Assembly (NCBI GenBank): GCA_033286805.1
Contig: GCA_033286805.1_4727.1
Direction: 5' to 3' (one strand)
Source: a phage
DNA: 64,000 bases
Shown here: positions 1,429 to 22,747 of the stretch, piece after piece
Position numbering within the stretch: the first letter of the stretch is position 1
Layout of the letters: every line of letters begins with the position of its first letter
Program-made: the position numbers and the translations under genes
Notes under the pieces: model-generated
Seen by the model: only the letters and a program-made list of their open reading frames with translations
Told to the model about the DNA's origin: nothing
Databases searched by the model: none

Positions 1429-1429
1429 A

Positions 1430-6983: not shown

Positions 6984-7024
6984 CGGATTTCCTCATGTGT
7001 TAACGGGAGTGATTTCCATAGTAA

Positions 7025-7441
7025 TTACACAGTTGTAGGAAATTCCGGCCAATCGATATTTGGTGCAGCATCGGTATCGACAGCAGTCACCGCATCAGTG
7101 TAATCCAAAACAGCATTAAGTCGGGTCGTTTCTTCCTGAGTCAGTTTTCGCCCAGCCCGTAATTTTAACTGAATAAGATCGATGGAAGCCAGCGCAGAAT
7201 CAATCAAAGATTGTTTTATCTGTTCTGCCTCGGCGACGAGATCTTCGTGTTGCCGCTCGGGTTCCGGAGGTGCGGTAAACTCACCATTTGAGTATGACCA
7301 ACCTATTCCAGGTGACACAGCCTCCTTATCGTCGATATGAACCAACTGCTGATTGTCGAATATATCGAGCTCTGCTTCACCGTCGTAAACAATCGTGTTT
7401 ACTACCACCCCATTTTCAATAACAGCGTATGATGTACTCAT
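7025..7441 (-). CDS. tail fiber assembly chaperone (Tfa-like)
   Basis: Start taken at internal MSTSYAVIENG (ATG ~7441), abutting the fiber gene stop. C-terminal region (LIQLKLRAGRKLTQEETTRLNAVLDYTDAVTAVD ... IDWPEFP) resembles lambda/P2-type Tfa proteins. Confidence 0.6.
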   Translation of the reverse strand: MSTSYAVIENGVVVNTIVYDGEAELDIFDNQQLVHIDDKEAVSPGIGWSYSNGEFTAPPEPERQHEDLVAEAEQIKQSLIDSALASIDLIQLKLRAGRKLTQEETTRLNAVLDYTDAVTAVDTDAAPNIDWPEFPTTV

Positions 7442-10400
7442 TACATAAACTCCTCGATGATGCAAATCCCATTAGCACCACGCCCACCAGGCTTAGCGGT
7501 TCCTGAGTAAGAGTTATCGTAAGCACCGCCACCACCCGAACCAGGCGCGAGGCCGTTATGGGCGGTGCCAACACCAGCGCGACCGCCACCGCCCCAATAT
7601 GACGCACCCCCACATCCACCGACGGCAAGAGTACCGGCTTGTCCATCGTTACCGTCTCCGCCCGGAATGCGTATATCCCCGGTAGTAGGTACGCCCCCAT
7701 AGCCACCGCCAGTGTTTGTGACAGTTGTTTTTCCTGCGCCTTGCCCGCCGGGAGCAGTTAGCAGGGATGCAAATTTACTATCCCCACCCCCGTTCCCAGA
7801 CGTCGCCCCAGAGCCACCGGAACCACCAGAACCAATTACAACAGAATAACTAGCAGCTGTTACCGTTATAACCGAAATTACTGTTCCGCCAGCGCCTCCC
7901 CCAGCGCCAAAAAACGTTTCGCTGTTGGAATAAGCCTGACAGCCACCGCCGCCACCGCCGCCACCGGTTATTGTTACTCTAATCCGTTTTGTTCCTTGTG
8001 TTGGGGTGTACGTCCCTGACGATGTGAAAACACGCATGTTCAGTAAACGTCCGACATATCCGCTAGAATCGGCTAAACCAAGATCTTTAGCTGCTAACGT
8101 GATATTAGCTGTACCGTCAAACGGTTTACCGTTAATCGTGCGCGCGGTCTGCAACTTCGTCGCCGTTGCTGCGTTTCCTGATGTGTTCTGGTTCCCCGCA
8201 GCGTTAACACCCGGCAGATTGATGTTCGCACTACCGTCGAAAGATACCCCACCAATGGTGCGGGCTGTTTTCAGTTTTGTCGCCGTGGCAGCATTACCGG
8301 TTGTGTCTTGGTTACCGGTGGTGTTTACCCCAGGCAGGTTGATATTTGCCGTTCCGTTAAATGAAACACCGCCAATCGTCCTTGCTGTTTGAAGCCTCGT
8401 CGCGGTAGCGGCGTTACCCGTCGTGTTCTGGTTTCCGGTTGTGTTCACACCAGGGATACTATCTTTCGAGGTGTAGATCTGTGCCCATTCTGACCAGTTC
8501 GAATCGGCCGCATCACGACGTGAACGTAGGTAAGCTGGAGCGTATGCACCTGAGGTACCTGACCACCCAATGAGGATTTCACCTTCACCGACCGATGAAG
8601 CCCCTTTAAGATGAATGACGTTACCATAAGCGGTGGGATACCCGTTATTGTACGCTTCATACATCTGGATGCCCGCATTGCTGCCCTGAGCCGTGTTAGC
8701 TAATGCCGTAACACGACCTTTGGAGGCGAGAGCGGTAATACTGAAGCTAATATCCTTAGTACCGTCAAAGGCGACCCCATTAATCTTCCGTGCTGTTTGG
8801 AGTTTCGTGGCGGTAGCCGCATTACCAGAGGTACTCTGATTACCTGCTTTGTTCACGCCAGGCAAATCAATGTTGGCTGTTCCATCAAAGGACACGCCCC
8901 CTATGGTTCTCGCTGTCTGGAGTTTTGTTGCTGAGCCAGCGTTTCCGGAAGTGCTTTGATTACCTGCCGCGTTGACACCTGGTAGGTTAATGCTAGCAGA
9001 GCCATCAAAAGAAACTCCACCGATCGTGATTGGTGTTTTCAATTTCGTGGCTGTCGCAGCATTACCCGTCGTATTCTGATTGCCAGCCGCATTAACGCCT
9101 GGTAATGCGATATCGGTCGTACCATCGAACGCGACACCACCGATTTTACGGGCAGTCTGTAGCTTGGTCGCTGTAGCCGCGTTGCCGCTGGTATTTTGCG
9201 TGCCCGCTTTATTTACGCCTGGTAAATCAATGTTCGCAGTACCATCAAAAGAAACACCCCCGATGGTTCTCGCGGTCTCAAGTTTGGTTGCGCTTCCTGC
9301 GTTTCCGCTGGTGTCTTGGTTTCCCGCTGCATCAACACCCGGTAGACTGATGCTGGCCGAACCATCGAAACTCACACCACCGATCGTAACAGCGGTTTTC
9401 AATTTCGTAGCGGTTGCAGCGTTCCCCGTGGTATTTTGGTTACCTGTCGCATTCACACCCGGTAATGCAATATCCGCTGTTCCGTCAAAGGCAACGCCAC
9501 CGATTCTACGTGCAGTTTGTAGCTTGGTTGCACTAGCAGCGTTACCGCTGGTATTCTGGGTGCCAGCTTTGTTAACACCAGGGAGATCGATGTTAGCAGA
9601 ACCATCGAAGCTAACGCCACCTATCGTTCTTGCAGTAGCAAGTTTAGCTGCTGTAGCAGCGGCGTTACCGACTTTTAACCATTCGCCCCATGGACCATCC
9701 TGGCCGTTCCATGATGCCGTTAAACTACGTACGTAAATATTGCCGGTACATACAGTGTAACGTTGCGTTCCACCGAATTGCCCGGTTGGGAGCACTTCAA
9801 TGTAACCTGCGGCATTTGCTTCAGGGAAATTGTGGGCGACGTCCGCGTTCGTTGATACTGGTTTAGACCAAATACCCACAGACGCTTCAACCGGACCGTA
9901 CGTATTCAGATTTGCGTCGGTGGGAAGTTGTCCTCGAAAACGCTGGAATTGTGTTGCCGATAACCCCAACGTTGTTTGCATGCTTTCAATGCTGGATTGC
10001 TGAAGTAACGTCCGTGCTGTCGACGTAATCACGGTAAGCGCAACTTTATTAACACCGGTGAAATACGGGAGTTTGTCTGCTGATGTCGCTAAACCTGAAA
10101 AGGCGGTCAGTAATGCGTTAAGGGGCTGCTTCCCAGCTAACGCATTTGTTACCGTCGTTGCGAAATTAGGATCACTTCCTATAGCTCGAGCCAGCTTATT
10201 AAGCGTATTTAGCGTCGCTGGTGACGAGTCGATCAGCGCCGTGATCGCACGCATCACAAATTCCGTGTTGGCTATCTGTCGACTGCTATTGTTAACTGCT
10301 GCGGTGGGCGCTGCTGGCGTACCAGTGAATACAGGGCTATTAAGATCCGCCTTGAGGGCGATGAGACGTTTAAGCGCTTCAACATCAACTTTCAGGTTTT

Positions 10401-11319
10401 CCCATCCGATGAGAGAACCACCACTGTTGGTATGATAACGGTTGTACCAGAAGTCACCGTTAACGCCAAAAAAGAATATACATTTCTCTTCGTTTTGTGG
10501 ACCGGAACTATTTCGTGATGAGTCGATATATTTGATTTCAATAAGACCGCTAAACACCACTCCTGGGATTATATTGTTGTCTCCAGCTGATTGTGATACT
10601 TGGTACATCCCCGGGGTTGCAGCTTTAACCCACGTTAAGAATTCTGTTACTCCAGCGTTACCGCTGAAACGCTTAACGTCGGTAAGTATCGCCCCATAAC
10701 CGAACATACCGGGTAAAGCAACTCGCCCATCGGTACGGTCACGAATATCTGTTGCAACAACAGGCAATTGTTTACGAACGGCATTAACCGCTTTAGGCGT
10801 GGCCGATTTTGTCTCGTCGTCGCTATCGGTTTCATTACTTAGAATAGTTAAACCGCGTGTAGTAGTAGTTGCATCAGGAAGAAATGCGTTATCCAACACC
10901 TTAAGCTGTACTGCACTCGTATTACTAACAACGACATGCACTTGACAGTTAAGAACGCTGGTTGCGCCTTCGGCAGGCGTAGGCTTATATCTTTCTGGTG
11001 CACTGCAGACGGCAATCAGAACACCTTGGTCGTCATACAGACCGATCTCACGTACCCAGAACCCACCTTGACCAGCAGGAATAATACCCTCAACGATAAT
11101 CCTAGTTGTGCTATCACCATCCGCATGGATATTAGAAACTTCCCCACGATAAACTTCGTGAACAAGCGCTGTTTGGCTGGCGGTAGGGGTTGGGATCGAG
11201 CCGTTACCATCACCAACGGCAAAGTGTGTGATTTTTAGTTTCTCACCGTCGGGAAGTAACGCAGCGGTGATACGTTCTGCTCCTTTATCGGTAACTACCG
11301 TTATATATGCTGTACTCAT
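7441..11319 (-). CDS. long tail fiber protein
   Basis: 1292 aa. N-terminal tail-fiber/collar-like domain (PTPTASQTALVHEVYRGE); eleven 39-aa tandem repeats; C-terminal polyglycine-rich region (GGGGGGGG ... GGGAGG). Confidence 0.75.
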   Translation of the reverse strand: MSTAYITVVTDKGAERITAALLPDGEKLKITHFAVGDGNGSIPTPTASQTALVHEVYRGEVSNIHADGDSTTRIIVEGIIPAGQGGFWVREIGLYDDQGVLIAVCSAPERYKPTPAEGATSVLNCQVHVVVSNTSAVQLKVLDNAFLPDATTTTRGLTILSNETDSDDETKSATPKAVNAVRKQLPVVATDIRDRTDGRVALPGMFGYGAILTDVKRFSGNAGVTEFLTWVKAATPGMYQVSQSAGDNNIIPGVVFSGLIEIKYIDSSRNSSGPQNEEKCIFFFGVNGDFWYNRYHTNSGGSLIGWENLKVDVEALKRLIALKADLNSPVFTGTPAAPTAAVNNSSRQIANTEFVMRAITALIDSSPATLNTLNKLARAIGSDPNFATTVTNALAGKQPLNALLTAFSGLATSADKLPYFTGVNKVALTVITSTARTLLQQSSIESMQTTLGLSATQFQRFRGQLPTDANLNTYGPVEASVGIWSKPVSTNADVAHNFPEANAAGYIEVLPTGQFGGTQRYTVCTGNIYVRSLTASWNGQDGPWGEWLKVGNAAATAAKLATARTIGGVSFDGSANIDLPGVNKAGTQNTSGNAASATKLQTARRIGGVAFDGTADIALPGVNATGNQNTTGNAATATKLKTAVTIGGVSFDGSASISLPGVDAAGNQDTSGNAGSATKLETARTIGGVSFDGTANIDLPGVNKAGTQNTSGNAATATKLQTARKIGGVAFDGTTDIALPGVNAAGNQNTTGNAATATKLKTPITIGGVSFDGSASINLPGVNAAGNQSTSGNAGSATKLQTARTIGGVSFDGTANIDLPGVNKAGNQSTSGNAATATKLQTARKINGVAFDGTKDISFSITALASKGRVTALANTAQGSNAGIQMYEAYNNGYPTAYGNVIHLKGASSVGEGEILIGWSGTSGAYAPAYLRSRRDAADSNWSEWAQIYTSKDSIPGVNTTGNQNTTGNAATATRLQTARTIGGVSFNGTANINLPGVNTTGNQDTTGNAATATKLKTARTIGGVSFDGSANINLPGVNAAGNQNTSGNAATATKLQTARTINGKPFDGTANITLAAKDLGLADSSGYVGRLLNMRVFTSSGTYTPTQGTKRIRVTITGGGGGGGGCQAYSNSETFFGAGGGAGGTVISVITVTAASYSVVIGSGGSGGSGATSGNGGGDSKFASLLTAPGGQGAGKTTVTNTGGGYGGVPTTGDIRIPGGDGNDGQAGTLAVGGCGGASYWGGGGRAGVGTAHNGLAPGSGGGGAYDNSYSGTAKPGGRGANGICIIEEFM
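8095..8454 (-). repeat. second block of the same 117-bp coding repeat, ~3 copies
   Basis: Fiber residues ~956-1075 repeat the same 39-aa unit after an intervening non-repeat domain. Confidence 0.6.
8740..9663 (-). repeat. in-frame tandem coding repeats, ~8 x 117 bp, inside the tail fiber gene
   Basis: Repeated unit encodes IGGVSFDGSANIDLPGVNKAGTQNTSGNAATATKLQTAR. The same periodicity produces spurious antisense ORFs at 9080..9736. Confidence 0.7.
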
Positions 11320-11325
11320 GGTGTT

Positions 11326-11853
11326 TTATCCTGGATAAATAGTGATGATATCACCAATGACGGTTGTGGCACCGGCGTAAAGATGAGCCGGAGATACATC
11401 ATGTTGGTTTGTCACAGTAAGATCCAATCGACCACGCCAAACCATGGAGGTATTCGCGATGGGGATAGAAATCTTTTTGGATATATCGTCACGAAAATCA
11501 ATAACAGTGGCAAGGGTAACCGCATCAAAATCAACATCGGGATCAAAGACGAACCCGTATTGATCTGAAATCGCCCGAATAATGGCATGTATAGTTGTTG
11601 TCTCAACAGACTCTAAAACGATTTTTACCGGTATTCCTAAAAATGCCTTCGCGATATCGCGTCGGGCGTAAACGATAAAGCATTCACCGCACCACTTTGT
11701 TCCTTCATTTGCTGTGACGATCACTTTTGCCCTGTTAGCACCAGAACTCCCATCCAAGGTTAATGTAAGATCGGAGTTGCTGAACACGCTACCGTTACGT
11801 TGGTTTATCAACGTAATCAGTTCGTCTTTCCATGGTGGGTAAAGTGAACGCAT
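11326..11853 (-). CDS. short paralog carrying only the shared N-terminal fiber/spike module (paralog B)
   Basis: Start set at MRSLYPPWKDEL (ATG verified at 11851-11853) by alignment with the other three paralogs; contains ARRDIAKAFLGIPVKI ... SDQYGFVFD. Confidence 0.5.
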   Translation of the reverse strand: MRSLYPPWKDELITLINQRNGSVFSNSDLTLTLDGSSGANRAKVIVTANEGTKWCGECFIVYARRDIAKAFLGIPVKIVLESVETTTIHAIIRAISDQYGFVFDPDVDFDAVTLATVIDFRDDISKKISIPIANTSMVWRGRLDLTVTNQHDVSPAHLYAGATTVIGDIITIYPG

Positions 11854-11966
11854 AAGCGCACCCTCCTCCAACAATCAAATTAAGATATATAACTCCTCGA
11901 AACCAAAGTGCGATTCGAGGTAAGCGTAAACAGTCCAGACGACCGCATAAAATTCCGCGCATATTA

Positions 11967-11998
11967 CCCCTCTACCCCGACAAAGCGAGATAGAGGGG
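11967..11998. terminator. GC-rich stem-loop
   Basis: CCCCTCTA / TAGAGGGG inverted repeat in the intergenic region downstream of gene 12059..15655. Confidence 0.4.
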
Positions 11999-12036
11999 AG
12001 GTTAATACGATTATGCTATTGCACTCCAAAGTTCAT

Positions 12037-12053
12037 GGGGCGGTAACCGCCCC
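12037..12053. terminator. short perfect palindrome hairpin
   Basis: GGGGCGG-TAA-CCGCCCC immediately after the stop of gene 12059..15655. Confidence 0.45.
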
Positions 12054-12058
12054 ATCGG

Positions 12059-15000
12059 TTAAATTGTCGGTTTTACATCACGTAATAAGGCAATATAATA
12101 GCCTAATCCTCGGAGGATCTCCCCACTCCAGAAACCAAAATACATTCCGTCTCTGCCGAGATTAGCGCTATCTGGTGCGGGACTCCACCCACCGTTCATT
12201 ACGTCATCAACGGTGTAGCGGTTGATGTAGTTCTCAACGATTTCGTTATACGCATTAACAGCAACAGAATAGCCTTTATCGTTGGGATGTCCGTACAACA
12301 TTGCTAACGACGCACCAGCCAACCATAATCCTGCCATGTGACCAGTAAAGTCATTAGGGATAAAAGCAGGGGGTTTATCCATCGGAAAATCCGTAGGAGA
12401 TTGATAGGCGTTTTCCTGTTGATACGTAAACAAGAAATCAATCCAATGACTGATGTAAGTGGTTAATTTCTCAGGGACGGCTAAACCACGATCAAGCAGT
12501 CCAGCATAAAGCCGCACCGCTGAAAAGAAAGCCCTCGGCTGATAACCAGACCATGCTGTCTGATCGCCGAAATGGTACATCGTAAAATCATTAACTTTTG
12601 ATCCGCTTGGCGCATCCCAACGATCCCACACGTACGCACTTGCCCCTGGCCCTAAAACCCCGAATTTCTGATAATACCACTGCTGCGAGTCATACCAGAA
12701 ATTCACAACATTCTGAATCATGAGGTCACGTCGTTCAGCCGATACGTCCATATCCAGGAAGACCCATGGATGTTGGTAGCCGGGATAAGGCTGACCACGC
12801 CAACTGTCGAACGTCGGTGCGTTAGGGATATAGTTGTTAGAGAACGGAATAATACCCGGAGTATAAGGCAATGGATCCAGACGTTGGTTGACAATCGTAC
12901 AATCGCCAACACGTAATGTTCCCTCCGCCTCAAAGGTTGCTTTTAACGTAAACAGCATGGTATATCCGTCATCCGTGGTGTAAGTTGACGGTGGATTGTT
13001 GATAGCGTAAAGCTTAAATACCCCTTCAGCGATATCGCTGTCATCAGGCAAGAACAGAATTTCAGTTGAGCCATCACCCCACACAGGTGCAGAAGGTTTA
13101 GGGTCAGTGTCAACATGGTTCGGTTGATACCCTGAGAGCGTCCACCCATTCGCCGAAAGCGTCAATGTATTTCTTGCTGTGGTGGCCGGTAGCATATACC
13201 ACCATCGCCAACCATTTGCATCTTCTACACGAACGTTGTAGTCAATCGACGCGAAATAACTGACCTGCCTTACGATCTGTTTTGCGGTTGGATTGAATTC
13301 AAATTGCCCGCCTGCCGCAGTAAGCTGCGCTTTTAGGAACAACCCATCCCAGGAATCTTCCACCGCTTCGCTGAATTCTGTTGTAATTGCGACATCGTCT
13401 TTCCAGCCGACTTTATCAGCCGATATCAACACAGAACCTGTAACAGCATCGCCGGTTGGCGTTGAAGCTTCATCAACCGCATCAGCAGGAATCAACGAGC
13501 CTATTTTGAAATCCCATTCTTTCGGCTCAGCACTGGAAGGTAATACCAGCTTGTATGTTTTGGCTTTCGCTTCGGTTTTGTCCAAAGAAAGCGATAATGA
13601 GATCTCAACCGGAATTGCAATACCTGCCGTATCCTTACCTCCGCAGGTTACACGAAGAATTGAATTACGATTGACACGGAACGGAATGGCCTGCTGTTCA
13701 AGATAAATTTGTGCTGAAGATGCTTGAATCACGATCCAGCCATCGGTATCACGTGTGATTGTGAACGGTGCTTTCGATGGGTACGTATACGTGTAAGCGA
13801 TACCGTCGGTGTCGTAACGATCGGTTCCTTTTACTTGACGGAAGAACTTATCGTTGGCGTCAATACGGGTATATTCTTCAATCGTAAACAAAGATGCCTT
13901 GTACGCTTTCTGATAACGCTCCTGCTGCGTTAAACGATATAAGGTGTAGGCTGCTTCACAAAACCATTGTTCGGCGTCTGACGCGTTTCCCATGTAGTCT
14001 CTGGTGACCGGCACCTGGATCGGTCGGTTATGCTGACACTCGTTCGTTTTGATGAGGTATCCGCCATATTCAACAGGAACACGCGGTGCCCATGCAACCA
14101 AGTAAGAACCGCTGACGGATTTATCTTTGAGTACGATGGTACCTACCTCATCGTCAGTACACGCTTCAAGATCGTCTCCGTCAGCACTTACGTAACGTTT
14201 TGTGCGTAACGCAACTTTCTCGATAGGGAACACCGTACCCTTTGTATCCCAGTCAATCGTCCCATCATCATTGGTTTTGAACACATCGGCGTTCAAATTC
14301 TGCCAGCCGAGTTTACCCTCATAGACCTGAACAACAAGATCCATGTATTCCCCGAACGTTGGTGCCCCATGTGTTATTTTTCCAATACCGTTGGTGAATG
14401 TAACCGCTGTGTCATGGAAACCGCCATGTGTTGGGTAATCGTCTTTTGCAAGAGGATAATGGGCCAACACAGGTTGTTTACCATTAACAATCCAGTTAGC
14501 GATCCAGCGTGTCGGTGTATCCGGTGGTTCAAGGCCTGCATAGAACGCTTTTATATACGCATCGAACGATGTCTCTGCTAATGTGAGATAATGCGCTTTA
14601 AGCTTGGTGTCATCCGTTGTATGACTGAATATACCCGCACCCAGAATTAACAACGACTGTCCTTCTGTTGTTGCGTCACCATCCGGTTGTGCTTCTTGTC
14701 GTGTTGCTGCAATGAAATGACGGTTGTTTACCATGACCCCGCTTTCATTTAACACGTAATGATCGGTTTCTGGGTCGGTAAACGTTCCTGTGTTTCGGGT
14801 TAAGAATCTTGCATGGCCATAACCAACGAAATTAACCGGCGACGCTGTAATCACCCATTTACCGATAAGTTGAGCAACATCATTATAACGCTCGGATGCG
14901 GTGATTTGTTTCACGTACCAGTCTTTATGGTTAAATGTCCAAAGCAGGAAGTAATAAGTTGTATCGATTTCCATCACTGGGAACGTCGGCGTTAACGGCT

Positions 15001-15655
15001 CCAGCATTAAGTAGTTGCTCCAGTCAATCTGTCCGCCAACAACCGATGGGGTAATCTCTAATAACTGACACCATTCATAACGGTCCGGTACACTACTGTA
15101 CGTTGTTGGTAAAGGTAACTTGTATACGCCAGTACGATTCAGATCGAACGCTTTTCTAGCCGATCCTAAATCAACATAAATACTCGACGATGTGCTTGCA
15201 TCAGATGCCTCCAAAGCACCTAACGTTGACCGATACATTGAGATGAACAACGTATCTTTCCAGTAAGGGTTATCCTTGATTGGTTCTAAAGCGATTTGTG
15301 CGGAGATGCTGTTCTGTGTCCCTAACTGGTATGTTGCATTTAAAGATTCTTCTGTGAAATAACTTTCTGCAATCGTCAGATGGAACTGCTCGTTCAATAA
15401 CGCGAGTGCGGCGCGGCCAGTAACATCCTCGTTACCGGTTTCTTTTTTCACGATCGCGCCGAACGGAAACAGTGTCGCGAATGACCGTTTTGGTTTATTA
15501 ACCGTAACCGTCCCTGTGTAATTTCCAACACCGTCAAGTTTTTGACTATCGCCAACAGCAGTGACTGCGATACCATCAGCCGGGATATTTGTTTTATTTA
15601 GCACATTGAGTTGGTCAACCAGATCCTGCTTATCGTCAGGTAAGAATGTCGCCAT
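12059..15655 (-). CDS. large hypothetical protein, probably structural
   Basis: 1198-aa ORF between fiber/spike paralogs; no catalytic motif recognised. Structural role inferred from context only. Confidence 0.55.
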   Translation of the reverse strand: MATFLPDDKQDLVDQLNVLNKTNIPADGIAVTAVGDSQKLDGVGNYTGTVTVNKPKRSFATLFPFGAIVKKETGNEDVTGRAALALLNEQFHLTIAESYFTEESLNATYQLGTQNSISAQIALEPIKDNPYWKDTLFISMYRSTLGALEASDASTSSSIYVDLGSARKAFDLNRTGVYKLPLPTTYSSVPDRYEWCQLLEITPSVVGGQIDWSNYLMLEPLTPTFPVMEIDTTYYFLLWTFNHKDWYVKQITASERYNDVAQLIGKWVITASPVNFVGYGHARFLTRNTGTFTDPETDHYVLNESGVMVNNRHFIAATRQEAQPDGDATTEGQSLLILGAGIFSHTTDDTKLKAHYLTLAETSFDAYIKAFYAGLEPPDTPTRWIANWIVNGKQPVLAHYPLAKDDYPTHGGFHDTAVTFTNGIGKITHGAPTFGEYMDLVVQVYEGKLGWQNLNADVFKTNDDGTIDWDTKGTVFPIEKVALRTKRYVSADGDDLEACTDDEVGTIVLKDKSVSGSYLVAWAPRVPVEYGGYLIKTNECQHNRPIQVPVTRDYMGNASDAEQWFCEAAYTLYRLTQQERYQKAYKASLFTIEEYTRIDANDKFFRQVKGTDRYDTDGIAYTYTYPSKAPFTITRDTDGWIVIQASSAQIYLEQQAIPFRVNRNSILRVTCGGKDTAGIAIPVEISLSLSLDKTEAKAKTYKLVLPSSAEPKEWDFKIGSLIPADAVDEASTPTGDAVTGSVLISADKVGWKDDVAITTEFSEAVEDSWDGLFLKAQLTAAGGQFEFNPTAKQIVRQVSYFASIDYNVRVEDANGWRWWYMLPATTARNTLTLSANGWTLSGYQPNHVDTDPKPSAPVWGDGSTEILFLPDDSDIAEGVFKLYAINNPPSTYTTDDGYTMLFTLKATFEAEGTLRVGDCTIVNQRLDPLPYTPGIIPFSNNYIPNAPTFDSWRGQPYPGYQHPWVFLDMDVSAERRDLMIQNVVNFWYDSQQWYYQKFGVLGPGASAYVWDRWDAPSGSKVNDFTMYHFGDQTAWSGYQPRAFFSAVRLYAGLLDRGLAVPEKLTTYISHWIDFLFTYQQENAYQSPTDFPMDKPPAFIPNDFTGHMAGLWLAGASLAMLYGHPNDKGYSVAVNAYNEIVENYINRYTVDDVMNGGWSPAPDSANLGRDGMYFGFWSGEILRGLGYYIALLRDVKPTI

Positions 15656-15668
15656 TATTTACTCCACC

Positions 15669-16499
15669 TTAATCGTAACTAAAATAAAGTTTGCTGCTGA
15701 CGCCGCTATCGGAATGAGGTTTTAATACCAGAACAGAGCTTCCGAACGACGGAAGTATTGGAACATCTAAATCGTTCGCATCGGCAACTTTTCCATTATA
15801 AACGACATTGGCTGTTGTGATGAGTTCCCAAGCTAAGGTATAACTCATTGAAATCAGCGACGAGGCTAAACGGAATGCGTTGTATCCTTCTGGAGTATCT
15901 CCAACCGACATCGAACGTATCGCATCTTGCGGTGGTAAATTTAGCTTGATGCCGTAGGTGCTGAATGTGTGGAAATCCCCTTGTTTACTATCTTCTGGAT
16001 AATACGAGGTTAGCGGTTCTCGCACCGTAATCAGTTCGCTAATATCGGTACTTACATCTTTTCGTGCGAGGAATTGAAACGTACCGTGCCATGATGCCGA
16101 TGCGTCAGAACGAACGGGAACAGATATGGTTTTCTCGCCGCTTTCAAATTTAACCTGTGATGCTAACGCTGAAGAATCAAAGATCGTTAAATCGATCTTC
16201 AACCCATATTTCTTAAACAGCTGCGTTAAGCAGTCTGCTATCGTCGTCTTATCAGCAACGACAATAAAAGGTTGGTGTTTGATAAAGAGCTTATTAATGT
16301 CTCGACGTTGAAGATAAACCTGTACGGGGTCTTCGACGTAGTAAACCGATTGTGGTGCGGGGGCTATAGAAAGGCGTAACCGACCCGATGCACCATACCA
16401 GGCTGGCGTTAACGTAACGTCTGACAGGGACAACGGATGCTGGAGATAGGCGTTTATTTTAGATAACACTTCCTCCTGCCATGATGCTTCAGGATACAT
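15669..16499 (-). CDS. paralog with shared N-terminal fiber/spike module (paralog D)
   Basis: 276 aa; LQRRDINKLF ... FKKYGLKIDLTIFD ... ISVPVRSDASASWHG aligns with the module in 2980, 11326 and 52039. Confidence 0.5.
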   Translation of the reverse strand: MYPEASWQEEVLSKINAYLQHPLSLSDVTLTPAWYGASGRLRLSIAPAPQSVYYVEDPVQVYLQRRDINKLFIKHQPFIVVADKTTIADCLTQLFKKYGLKIDLTIFDSSALASQVKFESGEKTISVPVRSDASASWHGTFQFLARKDVSTDISELITVREPLTSYYPEDSKQGDFHTFSTYGIKLNLPPQDAIRSMSVGDTPEGYNAFRLASSLISMSYTLAWELITTANVVYNGKVADANDLDVPILPSFGSSVLVLKPHSDSGVSSKLYFSYD

Positions 16500-16556
16500 G
16501 CTGACCTCATAGATGATCGTTGATAGGAAAGAGACCTAATTCATACCATGGGAACC

Positions 16557-16614
16557 TCAAAAAAAAAAACGAAAAATAGGGAAACGGTGTTCATCCTTTT
16601 TAGGGATGAACACC
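16557..16614 (-). terminator. rho-independent terminator
   Basis: 12-bp stem CGGTGTTCATCC / GGATGAACACCG, followed on the minus strand by a long U tract (complement of the A run at 16557-16569); just downstream of gene 16636..17211. Confidence 0.7.
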
Positions 16615-16635
16615 GCGTACCGTTATATCGAACGA

Positions 16636-17211
16636 TTAGTAAGGAATCAGATCGTTAAGCTTTTCTTCTTCAACGACAAAGAAGTTGTTCTGGTCGTCTA
16701 AATCTGTTAACAGGACTTGTCCGACAGTAAAGCAGGTGCCGCCCTTCTTAGGTATCCATACCGGCTCATTCGTTACCTTATCGGGATACCATTTGAAACG
16801 ATTGGTATCCAAGAAGAACGCTGCTTTGTTCGCTTTATCGGTTGAACGATAGCTAACCAACGCAGGCCACTCAATCCAGGTGTTTGTGCATGGTACATGT
16901 AAAGGATACCATGCGCGCCAGCGTTTGCCTGGGTTGCTAGGATCAACCCAATACTCGGCAGTCAATACAGCATCTTTATAATGTTTCTGCATTAACATTT
17001 CGAGCACAAGCTCATTACCTTTTGATGCATCTAAAGTCACTTCCGTCATATAAAGAGATTTAGGTAACTCAGACTGTTTTGCGGGTGTTACAACACCGGT
17101 AACCAACGGTCTGCTCGGTTTACGTTTCTGTTCTTTCCGACGTGTGTAAAAGAATAGTCCGACAGATACAGCAACAAGTACAATAAACAACACTACCTTA
17201 ATCCAATTCAT
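16636..17211 (-). CDS. hypothetical membrane-anchored protein
   Basis: N-terminal hydrophobic helix MNWIKVVLFIVLVAVSVGLFFY then basic stretch; 191 aa. Confidence 0.5.
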   Translation of the reverse strand: MNWIKVVLFIVLVAVSVGLFFYTRRKEQKRKPSRPLVTGVVTPAKQSELPKSLYMTEVTLDASKGNELVLEMLMQKHYKDAVLTAEYWVDPSNPGKRWRAWYPLHVPCTNTWIEWPALVSYRSTDKANKAAFFLDTNRFKWYPDKVTNEPVWIPKKGGTCFTVGQVLLTDLDDQNNFFVVEEEKLNDLIPY

Positions 17212-17948
17212 TCGTCAATGTCTCCTTCTGCAAACAGGGTCAATTTGATTTCGGGATCATAGAACATGGTGATCACACCATCTCGCTCTGCTGAACGCTG
17301 TGCTGTCCATATTAACTGTTCATCCCGAATATCAAACTTATACCGTTCGTCGCTAACCACCGCTTCCGCATCGACATAGTGATAAATGCCACCTTCAGGA
17401 TTCTCAATCCAACCACGTACCATCAGACGGTCTTTCTGCTTACGTGTGAAGAATCTATACGGATCTTCGCAGGTTTGCCAAACGTCACCGCTCTCGCTTA
17501 CCAGTTCGTCATACACCTTCGAAAGCTCGTCAGGCACTGGAATCAAAATGTTATCCTGATAGCCTGACCAGAAACGACGTACGTCTTGTAATAGATCGTC
17601 GCTTTGTAGTTTAACCACATGCGTGTGATTCGCAAAATCAGTTTTTGATTCGCTGAACCAAAACGCTTTTTCGTTCCCTACAACGACATCGATTCGATCA
17701 TGTTGAACACAAACCCACCCATAAATCCATCCGTAACCATCAACGTTATATAACGTTGTTTGGTAACTGACAATATCGATATCATCAAACGATGCTAATA
17801 AAGCTTTAGCCGCTAGAAGCGGGGAGAAGTTTTTCGATTGCGATGCTTTACGGATGTCTTCTTTGATGAGTAATTTACCGTGAATTGGATGTTCAATAAC
17901 AAAACCACAGGAGAGCATGATGCTTCCTTGATAACGTGCTTCTTGCAT
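17208..17948 (-). CDS. hypothetical protein
   Basis: 246-aa ORF; 4-bp overlap with the downstream gene. Confidence 0.5.
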   Translation of the reverse strand: MQEARYQGSIMLSCGFVIEHPIHGKLLIKEDIRKASQSKNFSPLLAAKALLASFDDIDIVSYQTTLYNVDGYGWIYGWVCVQHDRIDVVVGNEKAFWFSESKTDFANHTHVVKLQSDDLLQDVRRFWSGYQDNILIPVPDELSKVYDELVSESGDVWQTCEDPYRFFTRKQKDRLMVRGWIENPEGGIYHYVDAEAVVSDERYKFDIRDEQLIWTAQRSAERDGVITMFYDPEIKLTLFAEGDIDE

Positions 17949-18122
17949 TTCTATTCCTCAAATAAAGATTGTCTTTTAACGCGACATGATTACAAGTACA
18001 CAGGTTACTGGATTTCTGTAAAAGTTAATTTTCGTAAACTAAAAGAAAATGTATCCGTGTTTCTTGGTTCTTCCCCTCCACAGCCTCAGGAAGAGAAGAA
18101 CCGTTTGCTAAGTTGTTATGTA

Positions 18123-18380
18123 TTAAAATGCATTGATTGGACTGCTCAACGCTTTATCGCGGATTTGAATCGCCGCCAGCATTGCTTTCTGGTACGAATC
18201 GTAAGCATCAACAGAAACCGTCATATCAACCAATTTCTCTAATACGGATTCAGCCGCTTTTACACGAACGCGGAACTTGGTGATTGCGTTATCTTTGTTA
18301 CGATAAACCGTGATGTGGTGCAGCGGTTGAACGTTAGTTTTATTGGTTTTAACGGATTTAGTTGCTTTGATCGTTTTCAT
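18123..18380 (-). CDS. hypothetical small basic protein
   Basis: 85-aa ORF; imperfect hairpin downstream (~18060-18110). Confidence 0.4.
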   Translation of the reverse strand: MKTIKATKSVKTNKTNVQPLHHITVYRNKDNAITKFRVRVKAAESVLEKLVDMTVSVDAYDSYQKAMLAAIQIRDKALSSPINAF

Positions 18381-18434
18381 GATGATTTCCTTCTTTATTA
18401 GGATGATTACATTTAGTCAGTTTAACAGCATAAA

Positions 18435-18459
18435 CCCTTCCCGCCTTACGCAGGAAGGG
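18435..18459 (-). terminator. stem-loop terminator
   Basis: CCCTTCC / GGAAGGG stem followed on the minus strand by UUUAUGCUGUU; downstream of gene 18474..18971. Confidence 0.5.
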
Positions 18460-18473
18460 CATACGGATTTGTT

Positions 18474-18971
18474 TTACGTGTGTCGTCGTTTACCAAAGAA
18501 AATGTGGCTGTCTACCACGGTGATATTGGTAGCATGTTTTCTGAAATGTTTAGGGCGAAGATGTTTCGCGTTAAAGAATACGGCTCCTCGTGTTGGGTCG
18601 GCTTTATGGTAAGCCGCAATGTCAGTATAACGTAATGTTGCGACCTCTCGTGCTATTGCTCTTGCTCGCTCAAAAGCAGCATGATCGCGTATGACAATAC
18701 GCCTTTGTTTTGTCCAGGGGAATTGACCTCTTTGCAGTACGACGTCTCTGACGTTCGTAGGGAATCGGTAGTCCATAGATCGATTATGTATTAAAAACGC
18801 CACGGAGTATTGCCCTTTTACAGATTCGCCTCTGGCTTCCATATACACCGCACATGCGACGATCTCTTTCCGGCAATCGATTCTAGGCCCTGCGTTCACT
18901 GATGCTTGACTGAACGGTGTAATAAGCAGCATAACAAGCCCTAAAATCAACGTGTGTAAAATACCTTGCAT
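18474..18971 (-). CDS. SleB-like cell wall hydrolase with signal peptide (candidate endolysin)
   Basis: N-terminal signal sequence MQGILHTLILGLVMLLITPFSQA; motif ACAVYMEARGESVKGQYSVAFLIHNR resembles the SleB/Hydrolase_2 family. Confidence 0.6.
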   Translation of the reverse strand: MQGILHTLILGLVMLLITPFSQASVNAGPRIDCRKEIVACAVYMEARGESVKGQYSVAFLIHNRSMDYRFPTNVRDVVLQRGQFPWTKQRRIVIRDHAAFERARAIAREVATLRYTDIAAYHKADPTRGAVFFNAKHLRPKHFRKHATNITVVDSHIFFGKRRHT

Positions 18972-19223
18972 CTTAATAACCTCACGATAAGGTGCTGTCC
19001 ACTGGCGTCTTGATAACGCATCCCGTCATCGGGTTGTTCTATTCAGCGGGCAGCAGGTTAGCGTCAGATGTTTGCCCGACATCCACGACAGAAATAAACG
19101 GTACTGAAAATACGGTCTCCTCTGGTTTGGCAATAAACATAACGTTGGATAACAGAACCCATTTCCCGCATCCAACGCGGTAAAGGTGTACATCGTTTGA
19201 ATTCATATAGTTTCTCAAAGATG

Positions 19224-19544
19224 TTAACCTCTACCGTCGAGCCATAGGTTGTATTTATCCCGAATGTACGGATCACGATAAATACGTCGATAGACTTGAT
19301 GCGGTATAAACTTGCAATGTACGAGTTCGTCGCTTAATTTATGCCGTCGCTCCATACCGTTGTGAATACGACGTATCTCCCGGATATTAAAGGTTGTTTT
19401 ATTCAAGAGAATAGACATAATGGCGGATCGATGATCCAGATTAAAGATCGCCATCACGCTTCGTATCTCGCGTAAAACAACTTCTCTATCGACAAGGATG
19501 CGATTAGTTAACTTAAGATTCTCCGTGATACCCATAACCTTCAT
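19224..19544 (-). CDS. hypothetical protein
   Basis: ORF 19224..19628; start probably at an internal Met because the upstream ORF overlaps. Confidence 0.3.
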   Translation of the reverse strand: MKVMGITENLKLTNRILVDREVVLREIRSVMAIFNLDHRSAIMSILLNKTTFNIREIRRIHNGMERRHKLSDELVHCKFIPHQVYRRIYRDPYIRDKYNLWLDGRG

Positions 19545-19884
19545 CCTCGACACGTCGACACATCGGTAAAAATAAACACCAGCTTGTTGCACTGAGGATC
19601 GCCGTTGCGATGATATTTGCGATATCACTCAATCGAGCATCGGCTTGCCACATAACAAGCATGAAAAGAACGTACGCGAACCCATACACGACAAACCGTC
19701 TGATGTTACGCGTCGACCACGTACAAATATACAAAAGGGGAAGCTGCCCTATAACACAAACGATGGTTCGGATAACGTAATAAACGCGTTCCGTCGTTGT
19801 TTCAAAATCGATATTCGTTGCAGAAATCCCAATCATTATAAAAGTGAAAATGAAATAGATTTTTGCGTATGTCTTTAAACTCAT
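19513..19884 (-). CDS. hypothetical membrane protein
   Basis: 123 aa with several hydrophobic segments (IYFIFTFIMIGISA; VYGFAYVLFMLVMW). Confidence 0.45.
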   Translation of the reverse strand: MSLKTYAKIYFIFTFIMIGISATNIDFETTTERVYYVIRTIVCVIGQLPLLYICTWSTRNIRRFVVYGFAYVLFMLVMWQADARLSDIANIIATAILSATSWCLFLPMCRRVEDEGYGYHGES

Positions 19885-19900
19885 GGCTTTTCCCGATCGT

Positions 19901-20098
19901 TTATTTGTGTTTTCCTACATTCCTCAACAAGGTAACGATAACGAATACCGCTATCATCAAGAAGACGAACCATAACCCTACGTTAATTCGGGCAGCAGGT
20001 TCATCGACCATGAAGAACATCATCCCACAAAACCCAATGACCATCCATGCTAGAACCATCCCCGTTAATCCCCGTAGTAGCATATGTCCCATCATGAA
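19901..20098 (-). CDS. hypothetical small membrane protein
   Basis: ORF 19901..20134; start probably at internal MMGHM. Hydrophobic (LAWMVIGFCGMMFFMV; LWFVFLMIAVFVIVTLL). Confidence 0.35.
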   Translation of the reverse strand, partial: FMMGHMLLRGLTGMVLAWMVIGFCGMMFFMVDEPAARINVGLWFVFLMIAVFVIVTLLRNVGKHK

Positions 20099-20268
20099 CT
20101 CCTTCTTACTTTTTCTGATAAAGCGATGATTCAAATTTTAGAAACACCGCTAACGCGAATGCGAGTAATAACGCACGTACCCACATACCTCCTTGACAAC
20201 TGTTGTACAACATAAAGACCAGAGCAATGCCGCCCATATGTAGGCGGCACTTATCGAACAATGTTGGT

Positions 20269-20496
20269 TTATACATAAGAGATTAAACGTTGAATGATTT
20301 TTACTTTGCCTTTACCTGGACCTTTCTTGCGGCGATTCAACAGTCGGATACTGTTTCCAGTTACGGTGTCGCCATCATAATCAGCCCGGAACTGTGATAA
20401 AAAAGCAGGCTGTATCGGATCGACACCAGGATTGCTGTGGAAAGGATTGAGACTTAAAAGAGGGTTAGCTGGAATCATCGTATTGTCCTTACTCAA
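20269..20496 (-). CDS. small protein with KKGPGKGK basic motif
   Basis: 75-aa ORF; C-terminal RRKKGPGKGKVK matches the motif seen in three tandem small ORFs at 37615-38182. Confidence 0.35.
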   Translation of the reverse strand: MSKDNTMIPANPLLSLNPFHSNPGVDPIQPAFLSQFRADYDGDTVTGNSIRLLNRRKKGPGKGKVKIIQRLISYV

Positions 20497-20847
20497 TTAT
20501 TTACCCAGATAGAGATATTCACCGCCCTGAACAACACCGGTTGCAGGATCAACAAGTATACGAACCCGCGCGTAGGTCTTGAAAGAGGGGTTGAAAACTT
20601 CGAAGTCTGCCACTTTCAATTTCACGCTGGGGTTGGTAGGGTTCTTAACTCCGGGAAGTTCTTTCGGGGTACCGAAATCAACACCGCATTCTTCAAGGTC
20701 TGCTGGCGTCATGCTCTCCATGGCCATGTAGATTGCTTTCGCTTTATCGTAAACTTCTGGGCTATCCAGCAATCCAGCCTGCGCTGAACCGACAACACTA
20801 CCGAACAGAATAGCAACAGCAACAAACAATTTAGTTAACGTTTTCAT
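20497..20847 (-). CDS. hypothetical secreted protein
   Basis: Signal peptide MKTLTKLFVAVAILFGSVVGSAQA; 116 aa. Confidence 0.5.
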   Translation of the reverse strand: MKTLTKLFVAVAILFGSVVGSAQAGLLDSPEVYDKAKAIYMAMESMTPADLEECGVDFGTPKELPGVKNPTNPSVKLKVADFEVFNPSFKTYARVRILVDPATGVVQGGEYLYLGK

Positions 20848-20883
20848 GATATTTTCCTCGAAAGTAAAATGTTACAATACTTA

Positions 20884-21306
20884 TTAACGTACGGCCGCCA
20901 CACTGTTAGCGCATGCCTGAATATCATCGGTATTTACGATGATGGTTTCGTTAAACGCACGAATACGCGCACGACGTGCTTCTTTAAGGCTGGCGATTGC
21001 GCTAGCAGCTTGATCTGTATTCGCAAGGCTAATAACCGGGATCAAACGCATGTCAGGACTGCAGATATTCAATGCTTGGTATACACGTCCATTGATTCCT
21101 ACGGTATCAGACATCGGATAGTGCGCACGGCATTGAAATTGACCCATGACAACAAGCGAACGATCGGAGATACCAATCTGATAACGACCGTCTTCGCTGT
21201 AGGCGTAGCAGTTATTCCCACGAGCCATCCAGTTAGCCTGTGCTTGCGTGCTAACAAAAGCCAGGGTGGTGACGATAGCGAATACGATATTTTTGAACAG
21301 TTTCAT
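20884..21306 (-). CDS. hypothetical secreted protein
   Basis: Signal peptide MKLFKNIVFAIVTTLAFVSTQAQA; 140 aa with several Cys; ATG verified at 21304-21306. Confidence 0.5.
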   Translation of the reverse strand: MKLFKNIVFAIVTTLAFVSTQAQANWMARGNNCYAYSEDGRYQIGISDRSLVVMGQFQCRAHYPMSDTVGINGRVYQALNICSPDMRLIPVISLANTDQAASAIASLKEARRARIRAFNETIIVNTDDIQACANSVAAVR

Positions 21307-21341
21307 GATAAAGATCCTTATTGAAATAAAATCGGTATAAA

Positions 21342-21361
21342 GGCCCCCATTTAGGGGGACC
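21342..21361 (-). terminator. stem-loop terminator
   Basis: CCCCC / GGGGG stem followed on the minus strand by UUUAUACCGAUUUUAUUU. Confidence 0.5.
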
Positions 21362-21364
21362 TGA

Positions 21365-21682
21365 TTAGTTTGCGCGTAAGAAATGACCCAGAACCGTTAC
21401 GATTGGAAACAGCCCTGTAACAGTATCATCGCCCGAAAACATCATCATTGTTCCGTTAACGGTGATGAAACGGATGTCGGTTGCGGACCCATCGATAGCG
21501 ACAAAACGCATCGAGTTCGGTGGAAGGTCCTCAACCACTTCCACGAGATACTCGCGATTATCAAAGGCTTCTTTAACACGACGCATGAAACGAATCAGTG
21601 TTCCTTCCGCGTCGGCTTCCAAATGACCTAAGATATCGCGATTATTACGAATAGCAAATACAGCCATTTTAAACATACACAT
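21365..21682 (-). CDS. hypothetical protein
   Basis: 105-aa ORF. Confidence 0.45.
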   Translation of the reverse strand: MCMFKMAVFAIRNNRDILGHLEADAEGTLIRFMRRVKEAFDNREYLVEVVEDLPPNSMRFVAIDGSATDIRFITVNGTMMMFSGDDTVTGLFPIVTVLGHFLRAN

Positions 21683-21747
21683 CTTGACATCCTTTTATAT
21701 TGGATTGATTGCTAATAATTCAAGGTGAAGCTGATTACTGTATTGCT

Positions 21748-21772
21748 TCACCTAGGTAATATAGCCGTGAAA
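21748..21772. promoter_or_regulatory. conserved 25-bp intergenic motif, copy 1
   Basis: CACCTAGGTAATATAGCCGTGAAA, near-identical to the motif at 49690-49714; 66-90 nt upstream of minus gene start 21682; adjacent to hairpin GGTGAAGC..GCTTCACC. Confidence 0.3.
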
Positions 21773-21790
21773 ATTAATGTATTAACCTAT

Positions 21791-22747
21791 TCACGCTTTT
21801 GCTGAGTAGGGTTGGATCTCATTAATTCGTTTAACCACAACCTCAGGGAAAAGTTTGAGTATCTCATCAGGTGGTATCGCACCTTCTGTCCAACGATAAC
21901 GTTCAACCATCTCGATGCGTGGACTCCCTCCGACGTCAGCGATACGAAAGATGCAGGCGATGCCTAAATCGAAGCATACGCTGTAAATATCTTCCGTACC
22001 TCCTTTATCTGCAAGTATTTTCGCAAAATGCTCGTTATCAGGAAGAATGGCTAAATTACGGATACACCAAACATTATTCCCCATTTCTTCAAGTTTTGGG
22101 TAGGTTAAAGTGTGCCCGTATTGTGTTAACCATCGATGATTTTCGAGGTAGAAGTCCTTATCTCCGGGTCGATAACTCCGTAACACCGCCGTGTAGAAGA
22201 GATTGGGCATATCGAGCAGTTCTTGAATCGTTGGACCCGTATGCTCCCAGAGACAGATTTGTTTACGGTCTATATCGTAATCTGTGACGTTACTCACCTC
22301 CCAACTTATCGTAAGTTCATCGGCAACATGCCAACCTAAAGCCTGTTCACCACCAAGCAGATTAACAATGGCTGTTATTTCATACTTGTCAAATACGCCT
22401 AAATTACGCGGCGGCTGCATCGTACGTAATGGCTCCCACAGCACACTGTAATCATAGAGCAAATGGCGACATAAACTTTTTGTTAGAGGTGTCTGTTCAG
22501 TGAACAGTGGAAGAATCACCGTATCCAATAACGGGCGTAACGGATGACCATTCGGTGGTAACGGGGCAGCCAGCCGACCTCCTTCTTTGGGGTAATCGAA
22601 ACCAAACCCGTAACGCTCCGAAATGAGTGCAATCAGCACTTTTGCTACGCGGTTACGTAGCATGCGATGGATGTCATCACTGTAACTGAATTTCGGTTTA
22701 TTACCGCAAACGAAGGTGAAGTATCTGGGCGTTAGCGCAGCCATCAT
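21791..22747 (-). CDS. hypothetical protein
   Basis: 318-aa ORF. Confidence 0.5.
   Translation of the reverse strand: MMAALTPRYFTFVCGNKPKFSYSDDIHRMLRNRVAKVLIALISERYGFGFDYPKEGGRLAAPLPPNGHPLRPLLDTVILPLFTEQTPLTKSLCRHLLYDYSVLWEPLRTMQPPRNLGVFDKYEITAIVNLLGGEQALGWHVADELTISWEVSNVTDYDIDRKQICLWEHTGPTIQELLDMPNLFYTAVLRSYRPGDKDFYLENHRWLTQYGHTLTYPKLEEMGNNVWCIRNLAILPDNEHFAKILADKGGTEDIYSVCFDLGIACIFRIADVGGSPRIEMVERYRWTEGAIPPDEILKLFPEVVVKRINEIQPYSAKA

Follow-up and report, generated by a model that had tools for sequence, protein, structure and literature searches.

A candidate two-unit envelope module in Goslar-like jumbo phages: a predicted early operon of exported and membrane proteins, and a secreted SleB-like hydrolase behind an ultraconserved leader

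We analysed a gene cluster around positions 18,474 to 20,496 of a 64,000-nt stretch of phage DNA (GenBank assembly GCA_033286805.1, contig GCA_033286805.1_4727.1; the whole stretch is called the window here), which codes for a secreted SleB-like cell wall hydrolase, small membrane proteins and two secreted proteins. Over bases 17000-22000 the window shares 93.9% identity with Escherichia phage vB_EcoM_Goslar, a jumbo phage of 237 kb that forms a phage nucleus. The window as a whole corresponds to Goslar at ~91.5-156 kb, so we name the genes after their Goslar counterparts. A first-pass annotation, made from the window's letters, had proposed a lysis cassette. As judged by sequence comparison, the hydrolase and the exported and membrane proteins form a conserved module. 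Our tentative reading, to which we give somewhat less than an even chance, is that the module has two units, an early envelope operon and a regulated, holin-independent muralytic effector that assists lysis, and that it is not a canonical lysis cassette.

The hydrolase is supported as an exported muralytic enzyme by its family matches and its N-terminus, much as the first-pass annotation had it. Residues 48-159 of its 165 match Pfam PF07486 Hydrolase_2 (E=3.7e-16; 60 bits, where the cutoff is 27). The protein falls in PHROG 938 ('endolysin'), aligns to the SleB catalytic-domain structures 4F55 and 4FET and keeps the AVYxExRGE motif, which places it in the SleB/CwlJ family. Its chemistry would presumably be that of a lytic transglycosylase. 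Only a signal peptide stands before the catalytic domain; the N-terminal peptidoglycan-binding domain of Bacillus SleB is not present. We read the N-terminus from the sequence heuristically, together with a Kyte-Doolittle scan. It runs MQGILHTLILGLVMLLITPFSQA up to the cleavage site and SV after it, so that the signal peptide takes up residues 1-23 (nt 18903-18971), with a Leu-rich core ILHTLILGLVMLLITPF (Kyte-Doolittle mean 1.97) and then P-F-S-Q-A before S, a site of the signal-peptidase-I type. It does not look like the uncleaved, weakly hydrophobic (Gly/Ala/Ser-rich) N-terminal signal anchor of signal-arrest-release (SAR) enzymes.

The protein is 98.8% identical to Goslar gp098, whose gene is already annotated in that phage as a putative cell wall hydrolase or endolysin. 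For comparison we used ten further Goslar-like genomes or contigs (L015-L018 and L020-L025); the most divergent of them is L025, with a synonymous divergence (dS) of 0.7-1.1 in the module genes. The hydrolase is present in every one that covers the position, with a ratio of non-synonymous to synonymous rates (dN/dS) of 0.09-0.18 overall and 0.09 against L025. A tblastn search found secreted SleB-like enzymes in 1035 phage records. Homologues in unrelated phages have classical signal peptides too, and in the examples that we inspected (Arash, the rV5-like UPEC06 and the T5-like DevonBitter) the gene sits among early or DNA-metabolism genes. The homologue of the rV5-like phage CB7 has a signal peptide and is reported to be toxic when expressed in E. 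coli; it coexists with a separate peptidase that resembles the T5 endolysin, with a lysin of the virion and with an Rz/Rz1 pair (PMC7344957).

The genes considered here all lie on the minus strand, and in the direction of transcription the order is gp105, gp104, gp103, gp102, o56, gp101, gp100, gp099, a 252-nt gap, gp098 (the hydrolase) and gp097. The first-pass annotation was right that the hydrolase lies near membrane and secreted open reading frames (ORFs), but it had the hydrolase leading the group, whereas it comes last; two ORFs without membrane segments (19224-19535 and 20269-20478) are interspersed, and the non-coding gap precedes the hydrolase. This gene order is kept in the 10 other Goslar-like genomes, and the hydrolase, gp101, o56, gp103, gp104 and gp105 are present in every genome covering the position. 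The stretch with the hydrolase is also the densest 12-gene window of transmembrane (TM) or signal-bearing genes in the whole Goslar genome, with 6 of the 12 (permutation p=0.018), and gp104 adjoins it as an additional one. A distant relative, the 49-kb phage contig L031, has a promoter motif of the kind described below, one gene, a fusion protein (P0010) that joins gp104-like and gp103-like parts, a 66-aa o56 homologue with two-TM ORFs on either side (79 aa before it and 67 aa after it), several gp102-like KRGPGKGK proteins, a 270-nt gap and finally a signal-bearing Hydrolase_2 gene, whose product is 46% identical to the window hydrolase.

The most conserved part of the module is the untranslated leader of the hydrolase. 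In an alignment of six genomes 7 of its 252 columns vary; the corresponding share is 12-44% for the genes around it and 16-19% for other intergenic spacers. In 9 pairwise comparisons there are 0-2 differences per 40 nt, where the neighbouring gp099 has up to 21. The leader stays nearly invariant although the neighbouring genes differ from L025 by a dS of 0.7-1.1 and their synonymous sites are close to saturated. Some gene callers place a 55-aa ORF inside the leader, and we rejected it as the cause of the conservation: there is no synonymous-site pattern among the few substitutions, and the constraint is hence on the nucleotides. Among its predicted elements are a terminator-like hairpin with GUUAUGUUUAUUGCCAAACC after it, a second hairpin whose loop is CGGGCAA, and a 3' domain where CUGACGCUAACCUG base-pairs with CACCUUAUCGUGAGG, the latter side including the Shine-Dalgarno sequence. 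When folding was compared with shuffled controls, the sense strand gave z=-2.1 and the antisense strand z=-0.3.

The 270-nt spacer of L031 keeps the blocks GTTATGTTT(A/G)TTGCCAAACC, CGGGCAA, CTGACGCTAACCTG and CACCTTATCGTGAGG. The strong hairpin just before GUUAUGUUU is rebuilt there from different sequence, the CGGGCAA-loop hairpin has 3 compensatory pairs, and the helix GCUGCCCGCUG/CAGUGGACAGC has 2. The 3' domain pairs CUGACGCUAACC with CCUUAUCGUGAGG in both the window and L031 (-33.6 and -23.1 kcal/mol, respectively), burying the Shine-Dalgarno sequence. The leader is thus predicted from these folds to mask the ribosome-binding site of the hydrolase, and the hairpin together with the masked site suggests that no enzyme is meant to be made from early read-through transcripts. 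We found no Rfam family for the leader or the region around it (a lone miRNA match, E=4, is a chance hit), a match in Goslar alone among phage records and 5,426 E. coli genomes, and nothing in a pattern search of GTDB genomes. We regard this extremely conserved leader as a candidate for a new cis-regulatory RNA. A two-block pattern of the leader also hit two viral contigs, L032 and L033; they come from an unrelated GOLLD/tRNA-rich phage with no hydrolase downstream, and we set them aside because ~0.35 chance matches are expected. The freshwater phage contig L033 carries a GOLLD RNA at 1777-2241 (200 bits), within a tRNA cluster.

Upstream of gp105 we found what is probably an early promoter. 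Intergenic DNA of Goslar is enriched 19-23 times in the octamers CTATATTA and TATATTAC, and the sites of these octamers share a ~35-nt motif, TTTCACGGCTA(T/C)ATTAC(C/T)T..GTGA. All of the ~14 copies in Goslar are intergenic and on the gene strand, and one is ~80 nt 5' of the gene for chimallin, the nuclear shell protein. Chimallin is an early gene. Because the motif also precedes it, we take the motif, as far as sequence can tell, to be the probable early promoter of Goslar-like phages, used by the virion RNA polymerase. Against a matrix made from 8 Goslar sites, among them the one before the chimallin gene, the copy in front of gp105 scores 48.5 bits; it is kept in L015, L016, L018, L020, L024 and L025, and L031 has an equivalent copy. 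Jumbo phages have conserved AT-rich early promoter motifs that bioinformatics can pick out (PMC7598289), and the module has just such a motif upstream, on the gene strand and shared with a known early gene. The motif, which can also be written TTTCACGGCTATATTAC(C/T)TA.GTGA, seems not to be annotated in the Goslar record. A second copy in the window lies at 49688-49725 (minus strand).

The two genes furthest upstream in the envelope part, after gp105, code for secreted proteins with textbook signal peptides, and both proteins were rightly called secreted in the first-pass annotation. Two remote homologues of gp104, P0009 and P0010 (26-27% identity), came out of a full HMMER search, and both are fusions of a gp104-like N-terminal half with a gp103-like C-terminal half. 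Because the two are fused there, we take gp104 and gp103 to be two parts of one functional unit. Against L025, dN/dS is 0.11 for gp104 and 0.25 for gp103. The gp103 protein has a cystatin/PepSY-like alpha+beta fold, and the AlphaFold model of gp104 is of low confidence (pLDDT 60), too poor for a structure search. The gene for P0009 belongs to a mobile island of enterobacteria that also carries anti-restriction, RadC and CbtA/CbeA genes. P0008, a homologue with 54% identity to gp103 and possibly a lipoprotein (LFSC), is encoded in E. coli assembly GCA_013055565.1 (L029 1-3142) directly after patA/patB(DUF459)/ape1-like peptidoglycan O-acetylation genes and near an integrase. That island is absent from the 5,426 complete E. 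coli genomes, and profile searches with gp103 in GTDB genomes and a protein database gave no further relatives.

The small membrane ORFs are, by their substitution patterns, real genes under purifying selection. The first-pass annotation had placed them within 2 nt of where we find them, all on the minus strand, and their hydrophobic character is borne out by about four TM segments in gp100, two in gp101 and a hairpin in o56. It had also suspected an untracked ORF of ~57 aa, which proves to be the 56-aa gene o56. This gene is annotated in neither the RefSeq nor the GenBank record of Goslar; since it is conserved with a low dN/dS, we conclude that it is a genuine gene that those records missed. 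It is intact in all Goslar-like genomes covering the position, with a dN/dS of 0.09 against L025 (21.5 synonymous and 12.5 non-synonymous differences), and is 43% identical to the 66-aa ORF of L031 (E=7e-13). Its product has one weakly and one strongly hydrophobic segment. The gp101 gene is likewise present in all Goslar-like genomes covering the position (dN/dS 0.07 against L025); it has no Pfam or PHROG match and no sequence homologue in L031. The longer TTG start of gp101 is broken in L015, and its apparent dual start, MMGHM, is not conserved, reading MIWLK in L015. Start and stop codons of the small ORFs are coupled or overlapping.

The remaining small ORFs evolve faster. The gp100 gene is absent in L015 and L024 and is 47-48% identical in L022 and L025; its dN/dS against L025 is 0.31, and its variable sites have no codon-position bias. 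The first-pass annotation had named a lack of conservation of the small ORFs as evidence against its own proposal, and this describes gp100 but not gp101 and o56, which are kept. Identity among relatives is 57-96% for gp099 (dN/dS 0.17 against L025) and 72-91% for gp102, which has an insertion in L018. The gp102 protein belongs to a family of small basic K(R/K)GPGKGK proteins, of which L031 has four tandem paralogues (9323-11506).

We then have to ask how far the region resembles a lysis cassette. No o-spanin or lipoprotein ORF turned up in any frame of the region, strict and relaxed lipobox scans of the Goslar genome for o-spanins gave gp088 alone, and the small ORFs match no holin or spanin family in Pfam or PHROGs. 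The size and topology of gp101 and o56 would suit a holin, but neither has a holin family match in these databases. Homologues of phiKZ gp141-gp144 were sought with tblastn in Goslar and the window, and none was found below E=0.2, so that a cassette of the phiKZ type is not present; among phiKZ gp139-144, gp139 finds Goslar gp032. Outside the window, Goslar gp024 is a signal-less endolysin candidate of the GH108 type (PHROG 315, E=3.6e-40), encoded among late structural genes upstream of an annotated terminator and kept in Goslar-like contigs. The candidate tail lysin of Goslar is gp204, with 2252 aa and a COG3179 lysozyme domain. The first-pass proposal of an endolysin with holin, antiholin or spanin candidates therefore holds in part: the exported muralytic enzyme and the conserved small ORFs are real, but with no spanins, no holin family match, an early promoter motif upstream and gp024 elsewhere, the region does not look like a canonical cassette.

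The mechanism that we propose would run as follows. Unit 1 (21783 to 19224) would be an operon transcribed from the predicted early promoter, of the virion-RNA-polymerase type. It would supply a two-part periplasmic protein (gp104 with gp103), the inner-membrane hairpins o56 and gp101, the variable gp100 and small basic cytoplasmic proteins, and its products may control the hydrolase or the cell surface. Unit 2 would be the hydrolase itself, which, being exported through Sec and freed of its signal peptide by cleavage, could reach the peptidoglycan without a holin. The terminator-like hairpin of the leader may end or attenuate the early transcript, and the long-range leader helix would bury the ribosome-binding site, so that the enzyme would be made only when the block is relieved, presumably late. 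The hydrolase would then weaken the wall as an auxiliary lysis effector, alongside the cytoplasmic GH108 candidate gp024. The gene content, export signals, conservation, promoter motif, leader conservation and predicted fold are what we observed; the role in lysis, the early timing, and the translational gating and lytic-transglycosylase chemistry of the hydrolase are what we infer.

Several points weigh against this two-unit reading. The early timing of unit 1 would follow from a label that depends on one motif shared with the chimallin gene. The helix between the anti-Shine-Dalgarno and Shine-Dalgarno strands is a prediction: both strands are invariant, so they offer no covariation, and the covariation seen elsewhere in the leader comes from a single diverged relative, L031. 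A consensus scan for canonical intrinsic terminators gave no convincing one, its counts being equal to those in shuffled controls. We found no holin anywhere for gp024, and because of this o56 or gp101 may be the holin of the phage and the locus its lysis locus. Finally, the searchable literature on Goslar held no expression, proteomic or genetic data, and nothing on lysis, transcript timing or the virion proteome.

The last-but-one of these points leads to the reading closest to the first-pass annotation, that this is a genuine, if unusual, lysis cassette. Here the exported hydrolase would be the endolysin, gp101 and/or o56 would act as pinholin and antiholin, collapsing the membrane potential and so activating the enzyme, and gp103 and gp104 would be periplasmic regulators (RI-like) or spanin substitutes. 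Systems with a secreted endolysin and a holin are well established, in the SAR endolysins of phages 21 and P1 and in Lys44 of fOg44. The muralytic enzyme is indeed exported; gp101 is small, with class-II holin topology and a basic C-terminus; o56 has its weak and strong hydrophobic segments; both are under strong purifying selection; and the coupled or overlapping start and stop codons fit as well. There is no other holin-like gene near gp024 and there are no homologues of phiKZ gp141-143, and the leader suggests delayed expression. However, the predicted early promoter is directly upstream of the membrane ORFs, no holin family match or spanin pair turned up, the MMGHM dual start of gp101 is not conserved and no gp101 homologue was detected in L031. 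The signal of the hydrolase is Leu-rich with a cleavage site and not SAR-like, and in rV5-like phages the same enzyme family coexists with other candidate lysis enzymes. On balance we consider a true cassette rather unlikely, though it deserves to be taken seriously.

The early promoter motif that counts against a cassette would suit an envelope-takeover or superinfection-exclusion module that has nothing to do with lysis. Its proteins would block the DNA entry or the tail lysins of rival phages (compare T4 Imm and Sp), and the hydrolase would remodel the wall, for example as the cell enlarges around the phage nucleus. The fast evolution and presence/absence variation of gp100, gp099 and gp102 are typical of conflict genes, the P0009 fusion sits in a mobile island with anti-restriction, RadC and CbtA/CbeA genes, the gp103 homologue adjoins peptidoglycan O-acetylation genes, and the homologous hydrolases of T5-like and rV5-like phages are among early or DNA-metabolism genes. 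Yet an early-acting enzyme would have little need of a masked ribosome-binding site. Moreover, a homologue is toxic on expression, and early unregulated export would therefore endanger the infection, and no homology to known exclusion proteins was found in Pfam or PHROGs. We judge this explanation to be unlikely. The first-pass annotation had also allowed that the hydrolase could be virion-associated, an entry enzyme with unrelated neighbours. The gene has tail and tail-fibre genes a few kb downstream of it, and phiKZ gp144 is an endolysin that is also annotated as virion-associated. Such a role is very improbable, because the cleavable Sec signal directs the protein to the periplasm, away from virion assembly in the cytoplasm; in addition, the protein is small and single-domain, gp204 is already a tail-lysin candidate, and synteny with exported proteins is kept across distant relatives.

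We compared the module with known systems. Secreted SleB-like hydrolases of Pectobacterium CB7 (gp83), Cronobacter CR3_087/CR9, the rV5-like Vequintavirinae, T5-like Klebsiella phages and Salmonella Arash belong to the same Hydrolase_2 family, with ~150-170 aa and a classical signal peptide. They differ in that their genes lie among early or DNA-metabolism genes, without the conserved leader or o56, gp103 and gp104 as neighbours, and identity is 29-46%; the function of these enzymes is putative, as it is in the window. R21/S21 of phage 21, Lyz of P1 and Lys44 of fOg44 likewise combine a muralytic enzyme that is Sec-exported before lysis with small two-TM proteins nearby. Compared with the SAR systems, the window signal is Leu-rich with an S-Q-A site, not Gly/Ala-rich and uncleaved, and the enzyme is of the SleB type, not of the T4-lysozyme type. 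Compared with pinholins of the phage 21 type, the window candidates match no family, and an early-type promoter precedes them. In T4, the lysozyme gene e is likewise a muralytic gene downstream of early transcription with its ribosome-binding site in an RNA structure, which in the window is predicted. Late promoters inside that structure relieve the block in T4. The window leader differs in being much larger and ultraconserved, and we identified no relieving promoter or factor for it.

The lysis cassette of phiKZ has been defined experimentally (PMC12894885). Its genes gp141/141.1/142/143/144 come from the same broad group of nucleus-forming jumbo phages, and both envelope gene clusters end in a muralytic enzyme; however, phiKZ uses a transglycosylase in the cytoplasm together with a holin of class IIIb and a pair of spanins (PMC12894885), whereas the window has an exported enzyme and no spanin pair that we could find. 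With regard to the Bacillus SleB-YpeB pair, the window hydrolase has no peptidoglycan-binding domain and its substrate cannot be spore cortex, and gp103 has no sequence similarity to YpeB, the fold match being weak and generic. Goslar-like lysis could differ from that of phiKZ in using a Sec-exported SleB-type transglycosylase that is held in check at two levels, by an RNA leader of a new class that masks the ribosome-binding site and by a co-evolving secreted gp104/gp103 partner analogous to YpeB, and triggered by o56/gp101. We find this scheme quite doubtful. What appears to be new, from sequence comparison, is the architecture of the module, the o56 gene, the split or fused relation of gp104 and gp103, the early promoter motif and the ultraconserved leader.

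Table 1. Positions of the module genes and associated elements in the window.
Feature	Position	Strand	Description
Predicted early promoter motif (virion-RNA-polymerase type), AATACATTAATTTTCACGGCTATATTACCTAGGTGAAG	21746..21783	-	74 nt 5' of the gp105-like start codon
gp105-like ORF	21365..21682	-	105 aa, cytoplasmic; first gene after the promoter; dN/dS 0.09 against L025
gp104-like secreted protein	20884..21306	-	140 aa; signal peptide 1-24, cleavage between AQA and N; 4 Cys
gp103-like secreted protein	20497..20847	-	116 aa; signal peptide 1-24, cleavage between AQA and G
gp102-like small basic protein	20269..20478	-	69 aa from ATG; KKGPGKGKVK motif; no TM segment
o56, inner-membrane hairpin protein	20106..20276	-	56 aa; start overlaps the gp102 stop codon
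gp101-like protein	19901..20098	-	65 aa; two TM segments; basic C-terminus RNVGKHK; class-II-holin-like topology
gp100-like variable accessory gene	19513..19884	-	123 aa; ~4 TM segments
gp099-like basic cytoplasmic protein	19224..19535	-	103 aa; evolves fast except at the C-terminus
Structured leader upstream of the hydrolase	18957..19235	-	~280 nt, nearly invariant in 11 genomes
Non-coding stretch between the hydrolase and the upstream genes	18972-19223	-	252 nt
Hydrolase (gp098-like), SleB-type (Hydrolase_2), Sec-exported, single-domain	18474..18971	-	165 aa
gp097-like gene	18123-18380	-	last in the listed order
gp094-like protein	16636..17211	-	191 aa; N-terminal TM anchor and periplasmic domain; three genes 3' of the hydrolase

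Some features near the module or elsewhere in the window should also be recorded (see Table 1 for coordinates). Neither gp105 nor gp094 has a family match in our scans (Pfam and PHROGs for gp105); gp094 is kept in Goslar-like genomes and is possibly part of the same envelope module. Near ~18036, between 17949 and 18122, the window lacks a counterpart of Goslar gp096 (473-nt gap). L015 lacks it as well, and L016, L017, L018 and L025 keep a gene of ~166-176 aa there. Scans of the region found no tRNA or tmRNA. Matches to sigma-70-like promoters are depleted in window positions 1-19999 (15, against 33.4 +/- 5.3 in shuffles), which is consistent with transcription that is independent of host RNA polymerase. 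A GC-rich hairpin, CCTCCTCCAACCC-GTAA-GGGAAGGAGGA, has ~8 copies in Goslar (loci L001-L007) that coincide with annotated terminators, and no copy lies in the stretch from the predicted early promoter at 21763 to the tail genes.

The single credible lipoprotein of Goslar is gp088, at 6477-6983 of the window (minus strand; 168 aa, lipobox LGGC). It belongs to PHROG 9559 (function unassigned), is encoded directly downstream of tail-fibre assembly and tail-fibre genes and has no i-spanin partner; its position recalls receptor-blocking exclusion lipoproteins such as T5 Llp. An alternative holin-like candidate is a 189-aa protein at 2389-2958 (minus strand), with a cytoplasmic N-terminal domain of ~100 aa followed by TM segments, an architecture loosely like that of phiKZ gp142/gp143, though no sequence similarity to them was detected. 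It is kept in the chimalliviruses PCH45, PhiEaH1, 2050HW and Moabite, where it adjoins thymidylate kinase, and a small cytoplasmic protein (2005-2379, minus strand) and an annotated terminator lie 3' of it. The 'gp54 spanin' of PCH45 could not be mapped to a homologue of this ORF.

The lysis of nucleus-forming jumbo phages was worked out only recently, for phiKZ, and Goslar, the E. coli model of the group, lacks the phiKZ lysis genes. If the module does serve Goslar lysis, then lysis strategies would not be conserved within the family. It would also mean that the lysis of these phages uses an exported, holin-independent enzyme from a family that is found in ~1000 sequenced phage genomes, and it would add a candidate new cis-regulatory RNA and a conserved membrane protein gene that had not been annotated before. 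If the module is instead an early takeover of the envelope, its proteins would form a defined group of candidate superinfection-exclusion factors for jumbo phages.

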